From a virus (Duplodnaviria; Heunggongvirae; Uroviricota; Caudoviricetes), in the IMG/VR virus record IMGVR_UViG_2737471862_000006: 19,368 bases of DNA; one strand, 5' to 3'. Positions 2,142 through 17,816 of this stretch are shown piece after piece. Each line of letters starts with the position of its first letter. Within the stretch, counting starts at the first letter, position 1. The translations under genes and the position numbers were made by a program. The notes beneath the pieces were generated by a model, which did no database searches, was not told where the DNA came from, and was given only the letters and a program-made list of their open reading frames with translations.

Positions 2142-2570
2142 TCAGGGTTTAAAATCCAGCACCCCATTTTGAAATACTTTATATACTTCCGGCGAAGGGG
2201 GGGCAGGTATATCAGCATTCTTTATCGCATTCATCGCTTCACGACATAAATCGAGGTCTCCACTTTCTCTTTTAACCTCCAGTAGAAGGCCATTCGGGGC
2301 CATATGCATTCTCAGTGTACACTCTTTTCCTGAATACTTACTCGCATCCCCGAACTGTTTTTCGATGGCGCTCTTGATTTGATGGGCATACAGACGGATA
2401 TCCTCACTAACATCAGAAGTACGTTCAGATGAACTCACATACTGTGTCTCTATTGCTTTATCGGAGTAATATGATGTACGGTCATGATAATTTGTCGATA
2501 CAGCATCAGTGCACCCGATAATAATCCCACTAATAATCAACGTAAGAATTGATGCGCTACGAAAACCCAT
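2142..2570 (-). CDS. Lipoprotein with TolA C-terminal-domain (domain III)-like tail, 142 aa; paralogue of 1596..1991
   Basis: ATG with SD GAGG; lipobox IIGC; C-terminal ~80 aa (HQIKSAIEKQFGDASKYSGKECTLRMHMAPNGLLLEVK...LCREAMNAIKNADIPAPPSPEVYKVFQNGVLDFKP) closely resembles the C-terminus of E. coli TolA as I recall it (...GQIKSAIESKFYDASSYAGKTCTLRIKLAPDGMLLDIK...PKPPSQAVYEVFKNAPLDFKP). Confidence 0.7.
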   Translation of the reverse strand: MGFRSASILTLIISGIIIGCTDAVSTNYHDRTSYYSDKAIETQYVSSSERTSDVSEDIRLYAHQIKSAIEKQFGDASKYSGKECTLRMHMAPNGLLLEVKRESGDLDLCREAMNAIKNADIPAPPSPEVYKVFQNGVLDFKP

Positions 2571-2733
2571 TTTTCCTCACATATGTCATATAGTAAAGGA
2601 TTATATATACCGTTGTTTTGGACGCTCAAACAGCGAATCAGATCAAATAAAACGCACATTTGTTAACATTTACACAAAGTCTGCGTGGGATATTCTGAAA
2701 GAATATCCATAATGTGGAGAGAATCTATTGAAG

Positions 2734-2838
2734 TGCATGGTGCCGGGTGCCTCCCGGTGAACAAAATGTTCGTGATACCTGTCGGCGACAGAAAAGGTTA
2801 ATGGTATCACCCCACCGCACAGGGGGATTCACCATGCA
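2734..2838. other. Compact ~105-nt cluster of nested inverted repeats (candidate structured RNA or DNA site)
   Basis: Outer 9-bp perfect stem TGCATGGTG (2734-2742) / CACCATGCA (2830-2838) enclosing hairpins CCGGG-tgcct-CCCGG (2743-2757), GAACA-aaa-TGTTC (2759-2771), GTGATACC...GGTATCAC (2772-2779 / 2803-2810) and CCCC...GGGG (2810-2813 / 2822-2825). Confidence 0.35.
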
Positions 2839-3158
2839 GGAGTTTTCTTAGCAAACTCACTGCGCGCCCGGCAACTCCCAACCACATAAAATGCGGAGTT
2901 TGTGGCATTTATGCATATAACTCGCAGGAATTATCTTAAAAAACTGATGTCGATCCGGATTAAAAAGAAGCAGGTCATCATCAGATGACTGGAAAAAAGG
3001 AAAACAAAAAATACTCATCATACAGTTTTGATTGCAGGGATGAGCCTGCTATGCACAATATGCAGAATATAAGCAAGATAAAAATATGCAGGCATATTAT
3101 TTCGGATTTTGTTATTAACACAACCTTTTTAATAATCATTTGGCATACAATAAACCAG

Positions 3159-3614: not shown

Positions 3615-4157
3615 TCAAGCCATTTTCTCAGCAAATGATTCACGCATGGGAATATATAGGGCATACTCAGCAACAGCTAACCAATTAGCAATCCGTTTTT
3701 CGCATGTGCTAAAACACCACTCTGGGTGTGCATCATTTAGCAATTCAGCCATTTTGCGCTTAGTCATCCCCCGCCCTTCATAGCGTTGCCGGAGAATGCA
3801 AATCAATCCTGGATGCTCTGCCAGCACCTCACTTATGACTCGATCAATACATAACGCCTCTGCATCAGTACAATGCGCCAGCCAGCTCTTTTGCTTGCCG
3901 TTGATCATCTCTCGCAAAAACGCTTCCAGCTCAGCTTTCTCTATTCCCGCTTTTTTCATTCTGCGCAGGGCTTCATTAATGGCTGTTTTCGTCAGTTTTT
4001 TGGATGCCAACAACTGATTGAACATATTCCCTGACCTGCCACCGCCAATATACGACCAGCGCCCCCACATACGTAGTTTTCCCTGAATCCAGACACTTTC
4101 CAGCGTGGTGAGGCGAAGGTGTTCTCCGCTTTTTCCTGTATTCGTTGGGTAAATCAT
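3615..4157 (-). CDS. Putative late-gene antiterminator (Q-like), 180 aa
   Basis: Call rests on position (last gene before a terminator/promoter-like leader and the lysis cassette, after ybcO-like nin genes) and basic, Cys-containing composition; ATGA overlap with the upstream gene. No sequence match recalled to lambda Q itself. Confidence 0.5.
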   Translation of the reverse strand: MIYPTNTGKSGEHLRLTTLESVWIQGKLRMWGRWSYIGGGRSGNMFNQLLASKKLTKTAINEALRRMKKAGIEKAELEAFLREMINGKQKSWLAHCTDAEALCIDRVISEVLAEHPGLICILRQRYEGRGMTKRKMAELLNDAHPEWCFSTCEKRIANWLAVAEYALYIPMRESFAEKMA

Positions 4158-4444: not shown

Positions 4445-5043
4445 TACGCAAACTCCAGTAGTTGTGCGGCCACATTTTCAACTTCCTCCTGAGAGGAGAA
4501 TTTACGGAACAGAATCCAGTTCCACAGCACATTCAGTACAGATTTATAAACCTGCTGAAACTCGACTTCGTCCATATTCGCAAAAGCGATGGATTTTGCC
4601 CGACGCCCACGGCTACCGTCCGGATAAATATGCTCGGTGTAAAATCCGGCCTGAATGGTTACCCACTCGCGGAAAGCCTCAAACGACTTTAGCAACGCCG
4701 TATCCCGGGTTCTACGAGTCGCAACGGTGTTAAGGTATTGCTCTGCGGCATCACTCAGGGCTGGCGTGTGTTCCCGACCAACTGATTCGCACAGGTAATC
4801 AACGAAACCAGACAGCAGTTCTCGTTCGCGAGGCGTGATCGCCCCACCGACCGGAGTCCAGTAATCGAATCCCAGTTGCAGGAGTTTGAAAAAACGCTTG
4901 TGGAATGCGTAGTTACGCACACGCTTAAAGTCTGCGTGTATCCACTCACCTATTTTGATTTGATGCAGAAAATCGCAACTCTCCGGCGTCGCCGGGAGAA
5001 GTAAACCAGAAGAGGTTTGTTTGACCAGTTGTATATGCGCCAT
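4444..5043 (-). CDS. DUF1367-like lambdoid nin-region protein, 199 aa
   Basis: Resembles the conserved prophage protein family that commonly precedes DUF1364/YbcO in lambdoid nin regions; translationally coupled to the ybcO-like gene. Confidence 0.55.
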   Translation of the reverse strand: MAHIQLVKQTSSGLLLPATPESCDFLHQIKIGEWIHADFKRVRNYAFHKRFFKLLQLGFDYWTPVGGAITPRERELLSGFVDYLCESVGREHTPALSDAAEQYLNTVATRRTRDTALLKSFEAFREWVTIQAGFYTEHIYPDGSRGRRAKSIAFANMDEVEFQQVYKSVLNVLWNWILFRKFSSQEEVENVAAQLLEFA

Positions 5044-5323
5044 TTCTCAATCTCTCGATGGCGCAGCGCAGCAGATGCCAGTTGTTCAGGCTGACGAATA
5101 AAGTATAAATAAACTGGCTATGGTGTAAAGCCCCACATAGCATGAACAAACACTACATATCAAATAGCTGGTACAAGGATAGAAATACGACACTTATTAT
5201 TAAAAACGATTAGATAAATTACATTTTAATGTTATGCAAAAGTTCTTTTTTATCATAACATTTCAATAAAAGCATTACAGATGCAATCATCCCGTCATCA
5301 TCAATTATTTAAGGTGGTTAAAC

Positions 5324-5410
5324 ATGGAAAATAACAAGTTCGCACATCTCGCTCCTTTTTTATCCGTAATCCTTTTCGCTTGTTGTTTTATATGGGCATT
5401 ATTTTTATAA
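5324..5410 (+). CDS. Candidate small hydrophobic peptide, 28 aa (MENNKFAHLAPFLSVILFACCFIWALFL)
   Basis: Strong SD AAGGTGG 6 nt upstream of the ATG; single predicted TM helix; lies in the AT-rich island. Coding status unproven. Confidence 0.3.
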   Translation: MENNKFAHLAPFLSVILFACCFIWALFL

Positions 5411-5801
5411 AGTAGCCACATGATAAGTTGCTGGAATCATATTTCCCACTCAAGTCATTAACATTTGATAAGATATATCTAAAAGGACGCCTTTACATTA
5501 TTTATGCGTATATAATTTATTTATATACACAGTAAAGGTATCCTGGGAAAATATTTATCGTTAAAAAATACATCATAAATAATTAAGCTGAAATTTCAGA
5601 ACATAACTAATACACACAATAAGGTTCAGTAACAGTAATCTATGTGGACTACATCGAGATTTTTTGATTAAACTTTAATAACTTATTCCTAACACACAGA
5701 ATGCATAAACTAAAAGTAAAACAAATAGTTATACGAAAAACAACCATATTTATTCTATCTTCTCCTCTAATCAACATATCAATTATGTGTTTCATAACAG
5801 C

Positions 5802-5841
5802 TTGACATAACCCTCCAAAAGATGCATTTTTAATGCATGTT
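5802..5841 (+). promoter_or_regulatory. Candidate promoter (-35 TTGACA at 5802-5807) with NsrR-type operator (5819-5841)
   Basis: AAGATGCATTT-T-TAATGCATGTT matches the 11-1-11 NsrR inverted-repeat consensus (AAGATGCATTT-N-AAATGCATCTT) at 21 of 23 positions and overlaps the predicted -10 region, immediately upstream of the yeaR-like RBS. Confidence 0.55.
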
Positions 5842-5856
5842 TTGGAGGAGGTGGTT

Positions 5857-6195
5857 ATGACACACAAGAGAATTCCTAAAGATTGGGTAATCAAACGCTC
5901 AACTCCGTTCTTCACAAAAGAGAACGTACCTTCAGCGTTATTAACACATCATAATACAGCAGCAGGTGTTTTTGGGCAGTTGTGCGTAATGGAAGGCACT
6001 GTAACATATTATGGTTTTACTGATGAGAATGCTACTGAACCGGAGATAAAAGTAGTCATTAATGCTGGCGCTTTTGCAACAAGCCCACCACAATACTGGC
6101 ACCGTGTTGAACTAAGCGATGATGCTCAGTTTAATATTAACTTTTGGGTCGCTCCAGACTTTTCGGGCGAAAAAGTCTATAGCACCAAAAAATAG
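5857..6195 (+). CDS. YeaR-like DUF1971 protein, 112 aa
   Basis: ATG at 5857 preceded by SD GGAGGAGGTGG; resembles E. coli YeaR as recalled (RSTPFF, MEGTVTYYGF..E..AEPE, FNINFWVAP). The track ORF begins 24 nt upstream at a weaker start. Confidence 0.6.
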   Translation: MTHKRIPKDWVIKRSTPFFTKENVPSALLTHHNTAAGVFGQLCVMEGTVTYYGFTDENATEPEIKVVINAGAFATSPPQYWHRVELSDDAQFNINFWVAPDFSGEKVYSTKK

Positions 6196-6224
6196 ATGAT
6201 CATATTAAAAATGCTTTAACAGTC

Positions 6225-6261
6225 AGACCCGGCAGGGCTATCCCCGACGGGTCTCATTTTT
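6225..6261 (+). terminator. Rho-independent terminator downstream of the yeaR-like gene
   Basis: Stem AGACCCG (6225-6231) / CGGGTCT (6248-6254) with an inner GGG/CCC extension, followed by CATTTTTG. Confidence 0.6.
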
Positions 6262-6772
6262 GTAAATATATTGGTTCTACATTGACAGGAGACTTCAACC
6301 ATAAGAAGTAATCTGAATACTTGAGCAATAAATTTACTTAAGATTAATGAGCGCACCTTGCCGGACAAAGATAAACCAAGGTAACACCTTTTTTCTAGCC
6401 AGTATGTAATCAATCAGAAAGCCGCTCCATAAGAACAACAGCAAGACAATAAATTGCCATTACAGCCGCAATAGCCAGCGCACATTTGAGAACCAGCACG
6501 ACAACCCCCTGTATTAGACGCACACCAGTCCTGATAAATATGAGGCTGTCTCGTCAGTGATTCAATACAACTATTGGGTATAGTTTCTGTGATTTTATTC
6601 TGTAGAAATGGAACACAACAACCAGTCACCACCAGCACTTCCTTAAATGCTCTAAGTCAGAAACAAGCCAACATTTTAGTCCGCTTTGAGCGAAGAGCGG
6701 ACATTGCTAACAGCATCCTGTGTGAATCATTACGATCAAATCGATGACTAGATAAGTACAAACCGGAAAAGG

Positions 6773-6793
6773 GGCCTACTGACGAAGTAGGCC
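6773..6793 (-). terminator. Rho-independent terminator of the three-gene operon
   Basis: Minus-strand GGCCTAC-ttcgtca-GTAGGCC followed by CCTTTTCCGGTTT, 16 nt after the operon stop codon. Confidence 0.6.
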
Positions 6794-6810
6794 TGAGTTC
6801 CTTATATATT

Positions 6811-7467
6811 TCACAAAATTCTGAGAGTTTCTAAGATGGATAAAAGTGTTGGAAGCTGACTCTCTCTCACACGGAATCTACCCGTCCTAGATAATTCCGT
6901 TTCAATTCCGTTAACGAAGAAATGTACGGAATCAAAAACGGCCGAACTATTCATGTATTTATTCTGATAAATTTCTTGGAGATTCTTTGAGCTTACTATT
7001 TTTGTCTTTGCTAAAGTAAAAGGATCAACAGAGATATTAGATAGAGACATGGATTTTATCTTGATGTCAAAGCCCTCAGAAAGACCATTTACAATTTTTC
7101 TCAGATCAAATTCTACTGGTCTCAAGCCACTATCTTCACCAAATAGTTTTTGCACCATAGTATAAGGCACTTTCATACTTAATGGAGGATTAGTGGCATA
7201 TAGTATGATTTTTTTCCCTTGTCTGACGCCAAAGTCCACATTTAAGTAAGTTGCTATTTCAACCTCTGAACGCTCGCCATTAGCATATTCTAAGCTTTGC
7301 TTGCTAATGCTTCTCATGGTAAATCTTAGTTTAAGCACTTCAGAGTTATTAATGATTTGAAAACCATATCCTTTATCTTCATCATAGAGGTTGTCATTTA
7401 CTTTATGTAATAACTCACTTTTAGTTATATCCTTTTCTGCTTTATAAATTTTTACCTTTATCATCAT
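6811..7467 (-). CDS. Hypothetical protein, cassette gene C (218 aa from the ATG at 7467)
   Basis: ATG at 7467 overlaps the stop of gene B (ATGA) and is preceded by SD AGGAGG; AT-rich codon usage; no recognisable motifs. The track ORF start at 7494 is a TTG. Confidence 0.6.
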   Translation of the reverse strand: MMIKVKIYKAEKDITKSELLHKVNDNLYDEDKGYGFQIINNSEVLKLRFTMRSISKQSLEYANGERSEVEIATYLNVDFGVRQGKKIILYATNPPLSMKVPYTMVQKLFGEDSGLRPVEFDLRKIVNGLSEGFDIKIKSMSLSNISVDPFTLAKTKIVSSKNLQEIYQNKYMNSSAVFDSVHFFVNGIETELSRTGRFRVRESQLPTLLSILETLRIL

Positions 7468-8711
7468 CCAGCCTCCTGATTCAAAGTCTCGCAAGACATA
7501 GCTTTCGTTACTGGGTATCGCTTGGTATGCTCTTCGATAATAAAGTCATTAATCAAAAATATTTTATCTTCTAATTGTTTCATGACTTGATCAAAGTCTG
7601 CGTCACTGAGTTTTTCTCTCTCTGCGGATGCAGAGTTGCTTTCTTTGTATAACGCTCTGAATTTTATATTTTTCCCAAGATATTTATCATCGAAACTAAG
7701 TTCAAAAGTTATAGTATGATTCTTAACTACTGAGGAAAATGACTTCCATCGAATTAAGCTTCGATAAAACCCATCACTGCACAGTTCCTTAATTTGAGGT
7801 GCGTTCACTAATGATAGGCCATCATACGCGGCATTGTTAATGTTAAAAGTTAGGTTTTCATCATCGTCAGATGCCATTTCCTGATTATTAATGTCATCAT
7901 CATTTTCGTTATCTGTAGAAGGTGAAATCTTGTTTAATAACTCTTGTGTTTCTTCGTTATTATTTCCTTCGAGATTATCTCCATTAATATCCAGAGATGT
8001 TTTTATTCTGCTTACTCTAACCTTTTCAAGACCAGCATATTCAAGTCCTGTTTTTTTATAATTTCCATCAAAATCATAAAGATGAACAGCAAAAATATTC
8101 CTAAGATCTGTATCGACGATACTTGATAAATCTATTTCGTTGACAACTATGTTGTTACAAACTGTTGATGAATATGTATCAATTATTTGCTTGAGAATTT
8201 CTGAAATGCGTGGCGTATAGTTATATCTTACTGAAACATATCCTTTTTTTACTATAAAAACTATACTCCCACTGTACAATTTTTTCTGCTGAAACTTACC
8301 CCTTCTAAAATCAAACTCAGTATAATCAATAGATATATGATAGGTTTGCAAGCCTGAGTAATGATCAATTTTCTCATGCCCTAGCAACTTGGGTCTATTT
8401 TCTTTCACTTTGTTTACAACGTCATAGAGTTTCTCTATATCAAATTCTTCATATATACGTTTTACTGAGAAGACGTCTTGGCTGGGTTTGGTTGCCAGTT
8501 TATCTTGTACTTCTCTGATGTGATTATATGAAAATGGCAGGTCTGATAATTTTTCTATCAATACCTCTTTTGATAAGTTAGATGGGAAAATTATCCCTCT
8601 ATTGAAGGCGATTTTCCTTAATGTAACATCTGTGATTTTTGCACTGTTAGAGTGGAGGGCGGTATAAATGTCACTTTCGTTTGAAAACAACGTAGCTTGA
8701 TATTTATTCAT
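7464..8711 (-). CDS. Hypothetical protein, cassette gene B (415 aa) with acidic low-complexity central region
   Basis: ATG with SD AAGGAG, 10 nt after the stop of gene A; central Asp/Asn/Glu-rich stretch (NNNEETQ...DNENDDDINNQEMASDDDEN); no Walker or other motifs recognised. Confidence 0.6.
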   Translation of the reverse strand: MNKYQATLFSNESDIYTALHSNSAKITDVTLRKIAFNRGIIFPSNLSKEVLIEKLSDLPFSYNHIREVQDKLATKPSQDVFSVKRIYEEFDIEKLYDVVNKVKENRPKLLGHEKIDHYSGLQTYHISIDYTEFDFRRGKFQQKKLYSGSIVFIVKKGYVSVRYNYTPRISEILKQIIDTYSSTVCNNIVVNEIDLSSIVDTDLRNIFAVHLYDFDGNYKKTGLEYAGLEKVRVSRIKTSLDINGDNLEGNNNEETQELLNKISPSTDNENDDDINNQEMASDDDENLTFNINNAAYDGLSLVNAPQIKELCSDGFYRSLIRWKSFSSVVKNHTITFELSFDDKYLGKNIKFRALYKESNSASAEREKLSDADFDQVMKQLEDKIFLINDFIIEEHTKRYPVTKAMSCETLNQEAG

Positions 8712-8721
8712 GTCATACTCC

Positions 8722-9813
8722 TTATGAAAAGTGACATTTTCTATTCACCTGCTTGCTGGCAACCTGGTACTCAAATATAGATAGCTTTTGATTAACAAAA
8801 GGAATGGATACTATTTTTTCCTTTAACGTTTCTATATGAGATTGAGTGAAAGAATATATTCCTATGTAATCATTAATGGCGGATTGCAAATGAATGCTTG
8901 AGTGTGATGAGAACGGAGTTATAACAAATATTTTGTCAAATTGATTGAGTAATTGATAGTTAAATATATACTCTAAAAGAAATATAAAGTGGTTACTGGA
9001 ATCAACCTCTTCCTTCCAGAATATATTCAATATTTTATTTCTTATTCTATCGCCACCATCATTTCTAATATATTCGTGTTCATATGAGTAAAAAATCATC
9101 CCAGATGTTATCATTTCAATTGTGGCTGGAAGGATTTTCCCTTTCGTTGCTATTTTATTATGTTTGTCAGGGTAAAAATATGTACAGTTCTCTATCTCAG
9201 GAATTTTTTGCCATAACATATTTGTTTCTTGTGTTACTTTGTCAGTAATTCCTCTTCTAGTCTCGATGTGTTCTGTAACATCTAGTAAAAATCTGATCAT
9301 AGTTGGGTCAAAAACGGCAATCACAGAGTTCTCTGGAAAATCATAACTTGCTGTGGCTGCTCCATTTAATTTCTCAATTAAATCAGAGTCATATTTATTG
9401 TCATGATTATATATAAAAAGTAGGCCGTTAACTTGATATTTCTCATTTGTGCTGTCAACAAATAGACGCCGCCACTCAGGACTTCTTGGCGCGCAAGCTA
9501 CCTGTTGTGATAAACTTCGTACAGTGTTCAATATTGATTTTGTACCGTCAAGCGTGCTGGCACAATAAGATTTTAAATCTGTTTGTATATACTGAGTTAT
9601 ATCTGAATAAGGATCTTTATATTTGAAGACTACATCCGTAGGATGAGTTTTTTTTGGGTTTTCAGATAAAAGTTGTTTAGCGTTTAGATGAGATCTCAAA
9701 CAACAGTCCCAACTTATATCCGTTGTATTTTGGGTTTTCCAGCCTAACTCATCAAAAATTCTACTGGAAATGATACCTGCAATCTCATCAATATTCTTAG
9801 TTTCGCCGCCCAC
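8722..9813 (-). CDS. Hypothetical protein, cassette gene A (363 aa, GTG start)
   Basis: GTG start preceded by SD GGAGGA; possible but weak PD-(D/E)xK-like pattern near the N-terminus (HPTDVVF ... IQTDLKSY); no confident family assignment. Confidence 0.55.
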   Translation of the reverse strand: MGGETKNIDEIAGIISSRIFDELGWKTQNTTDISWDCCLRSHLNAKQLLSENPKKTHPTDVVFKYKDPYSDITQYIQTDLKSYCASTLDGTKSILNTVRSLSQQVACAPRSPEWRRLFVDSTNEKYQVNGLLFIYNHDNKYDSDLIEKLNGAATASYDFPENSVIAVFDPTMIRFLLDVTEHIETRRGITDKVTQETNMLWQKIPEIENCTYFYPDKHNKIATKGKILPATIEMITSGMIFYSYEHEYIRNDGGDRIRNKILNIFWKEEVDSSNHFIFLLEYIFNYQLLNQFDKIFVITPFSSHSSIHLQSAINDYIGIYSFTQSHIETLKEKIVSIPFVNQKLSIFEYQVASKQVNRKCHFS

Positions 9814-17440: not shown

Positions 17441-17635
17441 ATGAGATATGACAATGTTAAACCATGTCCATTTTGTGGTTGTCCATCAGTAACGGTGAAA
17501 GCCATTTCAGGATATTACCGAGCGAAGTGTAACGGATGCGAATCCCGAACCGGTTATGGTGGAAGTGAAAAAGAAGCACTCGAACGATGAAATAAACGAA
17601 CCACTGGAAATAATAATGGAGGTGTTCATGTATAA
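17441..17635 (+). pseudogene. ralR: ralR toxin (restriction-alleviation / DNase) interrupted by an in-frame TGA at codon 50
   Basis: MRYDNVKPCPFCGCPSVTVKAISGYYRAKCNGCESRTGYGGSEKEALER then TGA (17588-17590), then in-frame NKRTTGNNNGGVHV and TAA (17633-17635); total 64 codons as in K-12 RalR, where this codon is TGG (Trp) by my recollection. Confidence 0.65.
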
Positions 17636-17816
17636 AATTACCGCCACTATTGAAAAGGAAGGTGGCACTCCTACTAACTGGACAAGATATTCAAAATCTA
17701 AACTAACGAAATCAGAATGCGAAAAAATGCTCTCAGGTAAAAAAGAAGCAGGCGTTTCCAGAGAGCAGAAAGTAAAACTGATAAATTTTAATTGCGAGAA
17801 ACTTCAGTCCTCGTGA
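17628..17816 (+). CDS. rcbA: RcbA/YdaC-like protein, 62 aa
   Basis: MYKITATIEKEGGTPTNWTRYSKSKLTKSECEKMLSGKK...; ATG overlaps the end of the ralR frame; SD GGAGGTG. Confidence 0.65.
   Translation: MYKITATIEKEGGTPTNWTRYSKSKLTKSECEKMLSGKKEAGVSREQKVKLINFNCEKLQSS

Follow-up and report, generated by a model that had tools for sequence, protein, structure and literature searches.

Two members of the DUF1971 protein family have been described in connection with NsrR, the enterobacterial repressor that responds to nitric oxide (NO). The yeaR-yoaG operon of Escherichia coli is cited as repressed by NsrR and activated by NarL (Lin et al. 2007; Bodenmiller & Spiro 2006, both as cited in PMC5320621), and STM1808 of Salmonella is cited as a gene of the NsrR regulon with a role in virulence, after Karlinsey et al. 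2012 (PMC7527575, PMC7082413). A tehB homologue had been predicted in the NsrR regulons of enterobacteria and of Photobacterium profundum (Rodionov et al. 2005, PMC1274295). Here, we analyse a DUF1971 gene that lies behind an NsrR-type operator in the DNA of a tailed phage, the virus record IMGVR_UViG_2737471862_000006 (Caudoviricetes), of which the whole stretch of 19,368 nucleotides is hereafter called the window. A first-pass annotation of its letters had proposed that a yeaR-like gene moved into a prophage together with its control by NsrR. We find that the best explanation of the locus is probably an NsrR-repressed, NO-inducible moron in a Rac-type lambdoid prophage, with a source other than yeaR. 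Morons, self-contained cassettes of non-phage genes, are familiar in lambdoid prophages, e.g., bor and lom of lambda and sodCI of Gifsy-2.

The NsrR-type operator and its promoter

The cassette comprises the following features.

5802-5807, plus strand: -35 hexamer TTGACA of the cassette's own sigma-70 promoter; read directly, invariant in all E. coli alleles inspected
5819-5841, no strand assigned: NsrR-type 11-1-11 operator, AAGATGCATTT-T-TAATGCATGTT; based on matrix score, shuffles and conservation
5825-5830, plus strand: inferred -10 hexamer CATTTT; placed by geometry, with a 17-bp spacer from the -35, inside the left half of the operator
5844-5851, plus strand: Shine-Dalgarno sequence GGAGGAGG, 5 nt before the ATG; read directly, varies among E. 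coli alleles
5857-6195, plus strand: gene for a DUF1971 protein of the STM1808 type, 112 aa; based on Pfam PF09313 and identity to the Salmonella gene
6225-6261, plus strand: GC-rich hairpin with the stem 6225-6231/6248-6254, then TTTTT at 6257-6261; fold of -19.4 kcal/mol, z = -2.5

The operator is the 23-mer AAGATGCATTTTTAATGCATGTT. The annotation had placed it between the TTGACA hexamer and the ribosome-binding site of the DUF1971 gene, and both its coordinates and its letters are exact; the full reading across promoter, operator, ribosome-binding site and start is gcTTGACAtaaccctccaaAAGATGCATTTTTAATGCATGTTttGGAGGAGGtggttATG. For scoring, we used the 27 11-1-11 sites of E. coli CFT073 published by Mehta et al. 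2015 (PMC5320621 Table 4), of which 26 are distinct, and built a symmetrised weight matrix from these 26 (consensus AAGATGCATTTAAAATGCATCTT). Set against the matrix consensus AAGATGCATTTNAAATGCATCTT, the window 23-mer has two mismatches, which confirms the fit at 21 of 23 positions that had been claimed for it. The scan with an NsrR weight matrix, which the annotation had suggested as a check, gives the operator 27.8 bits. This is higher than 25 of the 26 published sites, including hcp (25.8 bits), tehA (25.3), yeaR (23.9), ygbA (22.3) and hmp (20.3), and second only to ytfE (31.3 bits, or 30.6 by leave-one-out). The published list of palindromic NsrR sites of CFT073 (PMC5320621 Table 4) has no entry with the sequence of the window operator.

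A chance origin of the palindrome is excluded. The next best 23-mer anywhere in the window scores 12.5 bits, and no 23-mer in 200 Markov-1 random windows scored above 20.9 bits. Analytically, 3e-6 sites are expected per window, or 2.6e-5 at the local AT-rich composition, which corresponds to about 1e-3 to 7e-3 sites per 5 Mb (0.007 with the local composition). None of 200 dinucleotide shuffles of the window produced a match with at most three mismatches to AAGATGCATTTNAAATGCATCTT.

The same type of operator precedes the chromosomal orthologues of the gene. We collected 80 orthologous loci, with one genome per species, 53 of them from Enterobacterales and 27 from other groups. In 52 of the 53 Enterobacterales loci, a site scoring 18 bits or more (median 29) ends 15–27 nt before the start codon; Kluyvera and Leclercia, for instance, have AAGATGTATTTTAAATGCATGTT, and Citrobacter has AAGATGTATATTAAATACATCTT. 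The remaining locus has lost 1 nt from the spacer. Around the palindrome the sequence cannot be aligned between genera, and the synonymous sites of the window gene are saturated relative to the chromosomal orthologues. Because the flanks are not conserved and the synonymous sites are saturated, the palindrome itself must be held by selection.

The position of the operator relative to the promoter is also conserved. Its start lies 17 nt after TTGACA in the window, as it does in Kluyvera and Klebsiella, and 46 of 52 Enterobacterales orthologues have a TTGACA-like hexamer (at least 4 of 6 positions) 16–18 nt upstream of the operator. Operator positions 7–12 read TATTTT, TATATT or CATATT in 47 of these 52 and CATTTT in the window. 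Given the conserved spacing between the -35 and the operator, we infer that the -10 hexamer falls within these positions. The operator would then contain the -10, the classical arrangement for repression by promoter occlusion. It ends 15 nt before the ATG at 5857, which is the start of the DUF1971 protein in RefSeq. Another in-frame ATG (5833-5835) lies inside the operator and serves as the start in some database entries, giving proteins of 120–121 aa; it is probably a mis-called start, as neither the conserved N-terminus nor the ribosome-binding site supports it. No NarL 7-2-7 site was found near the promoter in a scan around 5700-5860.

The DUF1971 protein and its chromosomal relatives

The open reading frame had been described as DUF1971/YeaR-like, and its family assignment is firmly established by a match over the full length of the Pfam model (PF09313, TehB-like N-terminal domain; E = 2.3e-26, 92 bits against a cut-off of 23.1, model positions 1–80 of 80). 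The NCBIfam model of TehB is matched in part, with 49 bits against a cut-off of 303. Among solved structures, the protein matches 3DL3, the 'tellurite resistance protein B' of V. fischeri, over nearly its full length (E = 3.5e-59), and 3BB6, which is YeaR (E = 1.6e-24); 3M70 also matches. On the strength of such relatives (3DL3, 3BB6), the fold of the protein is known by homology.

Within the family, the window protein belongs to a subfamily with 75–82% identity that includes genes of Kluyvera, Leclercia, Enterobacter, Citrobacter, Klebsiella, Raoultella, Salmonella, Vibrio, Aliivibrio, Photobacterium and Shewanella. The identity to the genes of Salmonella, Kluyvera, Citrobacter and Klebsiella is 77–82%, and that to YeaR of E. 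coli K-12 is 41%. The Salmonella gene (S. arizonae, 77% identity) lies directly after nhaB-dsbB; because dsbB is STM1807 (PMC4143323), the orthologue is identified by its position as STM1808. The prophage gene is not in this conserved chromosomal position after dsbB, which makes it a prophage-borne xenologue and not a positional orthologue. Three histidines (His31, His32 and His82) are common to the window protein, STM1808 and 3DL3, and His32 and His82 align with histidines of YeaR. STM1808 reportedly binds zinc and needs His32 and His82. The coding sequence shows the mark of purifying selection, with ratios of nonsynonymous to synonymous substitution rates (dN/dS) of 0.08–0.26 among E. coli alleles and of 0.07 in the comparison with Kluyvera.

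The extent of the homology defines what was inherited. When the window is compared with the chromosomal loci by blastn, homology begins at 5816-5819, ends at 6191-6203 and is found nowhere else, so that the inherited unit, as delimited by these alignments, is the operator, the ribosome-binding site and the coding sequence. The AT-rich spacer of 750 bp upstream and the region downstream have no counterpart at the chromosomal loci by the same method. We sought a recent donor among the chromosomal orthologues and found none: all are 72–77% identical in DNA. Because the synonymous sites are saturated, the prophage gene is best described as an old xenologue and not as a recent copy.

These results bear on the idea that the gene had moved together with its control. 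The joint transfer stands, in that the homology starts at the operator and stops at about the stop codon, and 52 of the 53 Enterobacterales orthologues share the operator. The source was not yeaR, the route by which the annotation had reached its otherwise supported reading of the operator. We rejected an origin from yeaR on the basis of the 41% identity, the lack of yoaG, the lack of a NarL site and an operator that differs in sequence and in distance from the gene; the only plus-strand open reading frame downstream has no similarity to YoaG. The source is of the STM1808 type.

The closest chromosomal group (Kluyvera, Leclercia, Enterobacter, Pseudescherichia, Buttiauxella and relatives) has an additional element that is absent from the prophage copy. 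A Fur-box-like 19-mer, e.g., GATAATGAGATTCATTATC, is conserved there just upstream of the -35, 64–66 nt before the ATG, and matches the Fur consensus at 13–17 of 19 positions, which suggests that these chromosomal orthologues may be under dual control by Fur and NsrR. Fur co-regulation was also considered for the prophage cassette and rejected: no Fur box with at most three mismatches occurs in the window, where the best match to the consensus is 11 of 19.

Outside the Enterobacterales, the link to NO takes another form. The orthologue lies directly downstream of norV-norW, on the same strand, in 20 of the 27 loci, which belong to Vibrionaceae (Vibrio, Aliivibrio, Photobacterium), Shewanella and Oceanospirillales. 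The gene norV encodes flavorubredoxin, an NO reductase with ODP/metallo-beta-lactamase, flavodoxin and rubredoxin domains, and norW encodes its reductase; in Aliivibrio, an extra gene for an NAD-binding oxidoreductase stands between norVW and the orthologue. The norVW-linked loci have no NsrR-type site within 3 kb; among the Vibrionaceae orthologues as a whole, this holds for most loci, and one Photobacterium locus has such a site with 28.5 bits. In E. coli, the regulator of norVW is NorR. For the norVW-linked orthologues, control by NO would be exerted by whatever regulates norVW, in place of an NsrR operator. Judged from operators and gene neighbourhoods, the subfamily is thus tied to NO defence in two ways, by a cluster with NO reductase genes or by an NsrR operator.

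Prophage setting and allelic variation

The annotation had called the gene prophage-borne, and the genomes that carry it bear this out. E. coli ES5 matches a 901-nt query taken around the gene at 100% identity, and the query is found in 467 of 5426 complete E. coli genomes (~9%). In ES5, the prophage is annotated as Rac-type: intR/xisR adjoin ttcA, and ralR, recT, recE, racC, kilR, sieB and cI/cro-like helix-turn-helix genes are present. These are followed by a three-gene block with a PD-(D/E)XK nuclease, by the DUF1971 gene on the opposite strand, and then by DUF1367, DUF1364 (YbcO), DUF1133 (Q-like), the lysis genes essD, rrrD and rzpD, and trkG. The ES5 prophage is defective, as its annotation passes from a partial ynaK straight into chromosomal genes. 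The same gene is found in the same place in the deposited phage genomes vB_EcoS-666R9, -673R7 and -613R10, so complete phage genomes are another vehicle of the cassette.

Ten further E. coli contigs encode the identical protein, and all ten have the DUF1367-YbcO-DUF1133 genes on its 5' side. The 3' side is variable, with SIR2, Ham1-like and adenosine-deaminase genes, with GmrSD and TPR genes, with a PDDEXK_GAPS4-type trio as in the window, with unnamed genes, or with a truncation of the prophage into chromosomal genes. From these gene contents, the DUF1971 gene marks one edge of a hotspot of defence genes, of which the other bound is DUF977. The cassette itself has the composition and orientation of an insertion between phage modules: it lies on the strand opposite to the flanking phage genes and has 38–41% GC, against 45–55% for the phage genes to its left. 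The hairpin after the gene is identical in 10 independent E. coli loci, is present in a diverged version in phage vB_EcoS-666R9 and is unrelated to the sequence 3' of the chromosomal orthologues; a prophage-specific terminator is a plausible reading of its predicted fold.

Several other observations concern the neighbourhood. The minus-strand block at 6811-9813 encodes proteins of 227, 415 and 363 aa that match the candidate-defence models Hp3, Hp2 and Hp1 of PADLOC (PDLC03006, 03005 and 03004, respectively; E = 5e-41 for Hp1), and the 363-aa protein also has a precomputed PDDEXK_GAPS4 hit. The spacer between the DUF1367 gene and the cassette (5044-5801, ~750 bp, 25–31% GC) contains no convincing open reading frame and is ~92% conserved in phage vB_EcoS-666R9. 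Small open reading frames at 6216-6638 match no Pfam or NCBIfam model. One at 6410-6523 on the minus strand, downstream of the cassette and convergent with it, encodes a hydrophobic peptide of 37 aa (MRLIQGVVVLVLKCALAIAAVMAIYCLAVVLMERLSD) without a family match; in prophage copies with the A2 operator allele (see below), the corresponding position is taken by a Hok/Gef-type toxin gene. Rfam has no match in 5000-6900. Its gathering-level hits elsewhere in the window are the RalA antitoxin small RNA of the RalR/RalA type I toxin-antitoxin system (17634-17812, minus strand, 225 bits) and the small RNA STnc100 (2681-2867, minus strand, upstream of the lysis genes, 87 bits). Between the Q-like antiterminator gene (3615-4157, minus strand) and the holin, the open reading frames 1596-1991 and 2142-2570 (minus strand) are unusual cargo for the late region; in ES5, the former is annotated as a TolA C-terminal-domain protein and the latter falls at a partial tolA pseudogene.

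The operator varies among E. coli copies of the cassette, and four alleles were distinguished.

A1 (window): AAGATGCATTTTTAATGCATGTT, 27.8 bits
A2: AAGGTGCATTTATAATGCATGTT, 26.6 bits, also in phage 666R9
A4: AAGATGGATTTATAATGCATGTT, 23.4 bits
A3: AACACGCATTTATAATGCATGTT, 20.7 bits, left half-site weakened from AAGATG to AACACG

The near-consensus A1 of the window is a minority allele and A3, with two conserved positions of the left half changed, is the commonest. The census used megablast queries of 81 nt, which cannot bridge the differences between A1 and A3; with this limit, the A1-type query found 21 genomes (5 exact matches) and the A3-type query found 391, of which ~288 at 95% identity or more and ~103 at 90–95%. 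A strain sampled from the latter band, CE0021a, has A2. One sampled A3 copy (strain BR1220) has an extra G-to-A change in the right half that the consensus permits, and scores 19.8 bits. This form and A3 itself are close to the functional sites of hmp and ygbA in score. The identical protein is also found with the A3 allele in Shigella flexneri SFBU0723, and in Shigella sonnei, so that prophages with the cassette extend beyond E. coli in the strict sense.

The changes are concentrated in a short segment. Among loci encoding the identical protein, variation is seen in a stretch of 35 nt (5816-5851) with the left half-site and the ribosome-binding site, the latter reading GGAGGAGG, TGAGGAGG, TGATGAGG, TGAGGGGG, ATGGGAGG or ATAGGAGG; no copy differs in the -35, and the only change in the right half-site is the substitution in BR1220. 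One comparison gives seven differences in the 60 nt before the ATG, one in the coding sequence of 339 nt and three in the 240 nt further upstream. Nucleotide diversity (pi) peaks at 5800-5859, with ~0.08 against ~0.01 in the coding sequence, in a small and non-random sample of 18 sequences. The excess of substitutions at 5816-5851 could reflect tuning, relaxed constraint or a single recombined patch. In E. coli B-JRPT-4119, an IS1A element is inserted directly after the operator, at the ribosome-binding site, and the DUF1971 gene is gone, with promoter and operator kept.

Regulatory scenario, rival explanations and known systems

We propose that the cassette, i.e., the sigma-70 promoter, the NsrR operator, the strong ribosome-binding site, the STM1808-type gene and the terminator-like hairpin, would work as a unit. 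In an unstressed lysogen, a dimer of host [4Fe-4S]-NsrR would sit on the 11-1-11 palindrome, over the -10 and the likely start site, exclude RNA polymerase and keep the gene silent. NO would nitrosylate the cluster of NsrR, which would leave the DNA; a short monocistronic mRNA would then be made, and the DUF1971 protein would accumulate. By analogy with STM1808 and with the norVW linkage in marine genera, this protein may help the cell through nitrosative stress. The occupancy by NsrR, the induction by NO, the start site and the benefit to the lysogen are all what we infer from the DNA. We regard control by NsrR as a probable account overall, and several observations weigh against it. The inferred -10 is weak (3 of 6 matches to TATAAT) and a scan with the promoter consensus did not call the promoter of the cassette. 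The AT-rich surroundings (25–30% GC) could allow silencing by H-NS regardless of NsrR. The left half-site is degraded to A3 in ~290 of ~410 E. coli copies; because most copies carry this weakened form, tight NsrR control is, on the evidence of the alleles, not universally kept in the prophage lineage. The terminator that the annotation had ascribed to the gene is present as a hairpin with a T-run, but the fold is only moderately better than that of shuffles (z = -2.5), the T-run begins 2–3 nt past the stem, a strict terminator scan did not call it and, being specific to the prophage, it is not shared with the chromosomal loci.

The weakened alleles raise the question of whether the regulation still matters. 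The gene might be a decaying passenger that arrived with an NsrR operator and whose regulation, and perhaps expression, is no longer selected, the operator of the window being a copy that has not yet drifted. This would fit the mutation of two conserved left-half positions in the commonest allele (20.7 against 27.8 bits), the weakening of the ribosome-binding site in many copies, e.g., TGATGAGG, the peak of diversity before the gene, the genome in which IS1 follows the operator and the gene has been removed, and the defective state of the prophage in the 100%-identical genome. It is hard to reconcile with the purifying selection on the coding sequence (dN/dS of 0.07–0.26), with the invariant -35 and a right half-site altered by one consensus-permitted change, and with a retention of the operator that has outlasted the saturation of synonymous sites relative to the chromosomal orthologues. 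Even the weakest alleles (19.8–20.7 bits) are comparable to the functional sites of hmp (20.3) and ygbA (22.3), and changes limited to the operator and the ribosome-binding site resemble tuning more than random decay. We thus consider the passenger hypothesis unlikely. The opposite view of the same alleles, a regulatory dial still evolving, in which lineage-specific selection would retune the hold of NsrR and NO might also affect prophage development through head-on transcription toward the Q-like gene, is a speculation to which we give somewhat less credit still.

The orientation of the cassette leads to another possibility, that the promoter released by NO would act mainly on the phage, firing head-on into the early transcription toward the Q-like gene, with interference or antisense RNA modulating lytic development and the protein secondary. 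The cassette always lies antisense between the replication/defence region and the DUF1367-YbcO-DUF1133 block, which is what this hypothesis requires, but the evidence is positional, and antisense placement is common for morons. Moreover, the hairpin would end the transcript no more than ~70 nt past the stop codon, the protein is strongly conserved, and the same unit of operator and gene occurs in chromosomal contexts without phage, all of which make a main role in the phage very unlikely. The resemblance to NsrR sites could also be incidental if the palindrome were bound by another regulator, either of the Rrf2 family, e.g., IscR, since Rrf2 regulators recognise AT-rich palindromes of similar length, or encoded by the phage. 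The presence of the same palindrome before chromosomal orthologues without a phage context excludes a phage-specific binder; the site outscores 25 of the 26 published CFT073 NsrR sites, and the Salmonella orthologue is cited as regulated by NsrR in the sources given above, so that we deem another binder highly improbable. A fortuitous match might have been suspected from the AT-richness of both the intergenic DNA (25–31% GC) and the NsrR motif; with the expectation (2.6e-5 per window and 0.007 per 5 Mb at the local composition), the shuffles (0 of 200) and the conservation across genera, it is effectively refuted already, and its probability is negligible.

If control by NsrR is correct, the E. 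coli regulon of a host redox sensor would reach a mobile prophage, and some lysogens would gain a second NO-inducible DUF1971 protein beside the chromosomal YeaR. This may be relevant to survival in the inflamed gut or the urinary tract, where NO is abundant. Work on DUF1971 would benefit as well: the family is widespread, has solved structures and is linked to NO via NsrR in Enterobacterales or via norVW in Vibrionaceae and marine genera. We found no publication on an NsrR-controlled DUF1971 gene on a prophage, nor one combining NsrR with DUF1971, and among the matches listed for NsrR and prophage none deals with a DUF1971 cassette. The components (NsrR operators, STM1808 and morons) are all known, and their combination on a prophage is one of which we found no description. 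It adds incrementally to a regulon that is already well described and to the concept of morons, without a new principle. Its most interesting loose end is the natural series of operator alleles, a ready set for relating the strength of NsrR sites to repression.

Among the known systems, STM1808 of Salmonella belongs to the same subfamily (77% identity, with His31, His32 and His82 in common), and likewise has an NsrR-type 11-1-11 palindrome just upstream (AAGGTGTATATTAAATACATATT in S. arizonae, 23.6 bits), where it would overlap the promoter. STM1808 has a fixed place on the chromosome, next to dsbB, whereas the window copy is in a Rac-type prophage found in a minority of E. coli (467 of 5426 genomes); the Salmonella operator ends 27 nt before the ATG, that of the window 15 nt. 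The yeaR-yoaG operon and the cassette both encode a DUF1971 protein behind an upstream 11-1-11 NsrR-type site, but the operator of yeaR (AAATGGTATTTAAAATGCAAATT), with 23.9 bits, is the weaker one and is followed by a long leader, ~57 nt separating it from the ATG; the window lacks yoaG and a NarL site. The norVW-linked DUF1971 genes of Vibrionaceae and marine gammaproteobacteria are 75–80% identical and likewise linked to NO defence; they follow norV-norW in 20 of 27 loci, without an NsrR site within 3 kb, whereas the window gene has its operator. With the morons of lambdoid prophages, the cassette shares the organisation as an autonomous unit of promoter, gene and terminator between phage modules, with deviant composition and against the direction of phage transcription; like them, it would presumably be expressed from the repressed prophage. 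It differs from bor, lom and sodCI in its predicted regulator, the NO sensor NsrR, and in having a nitrosative-stress gene as its cargo.

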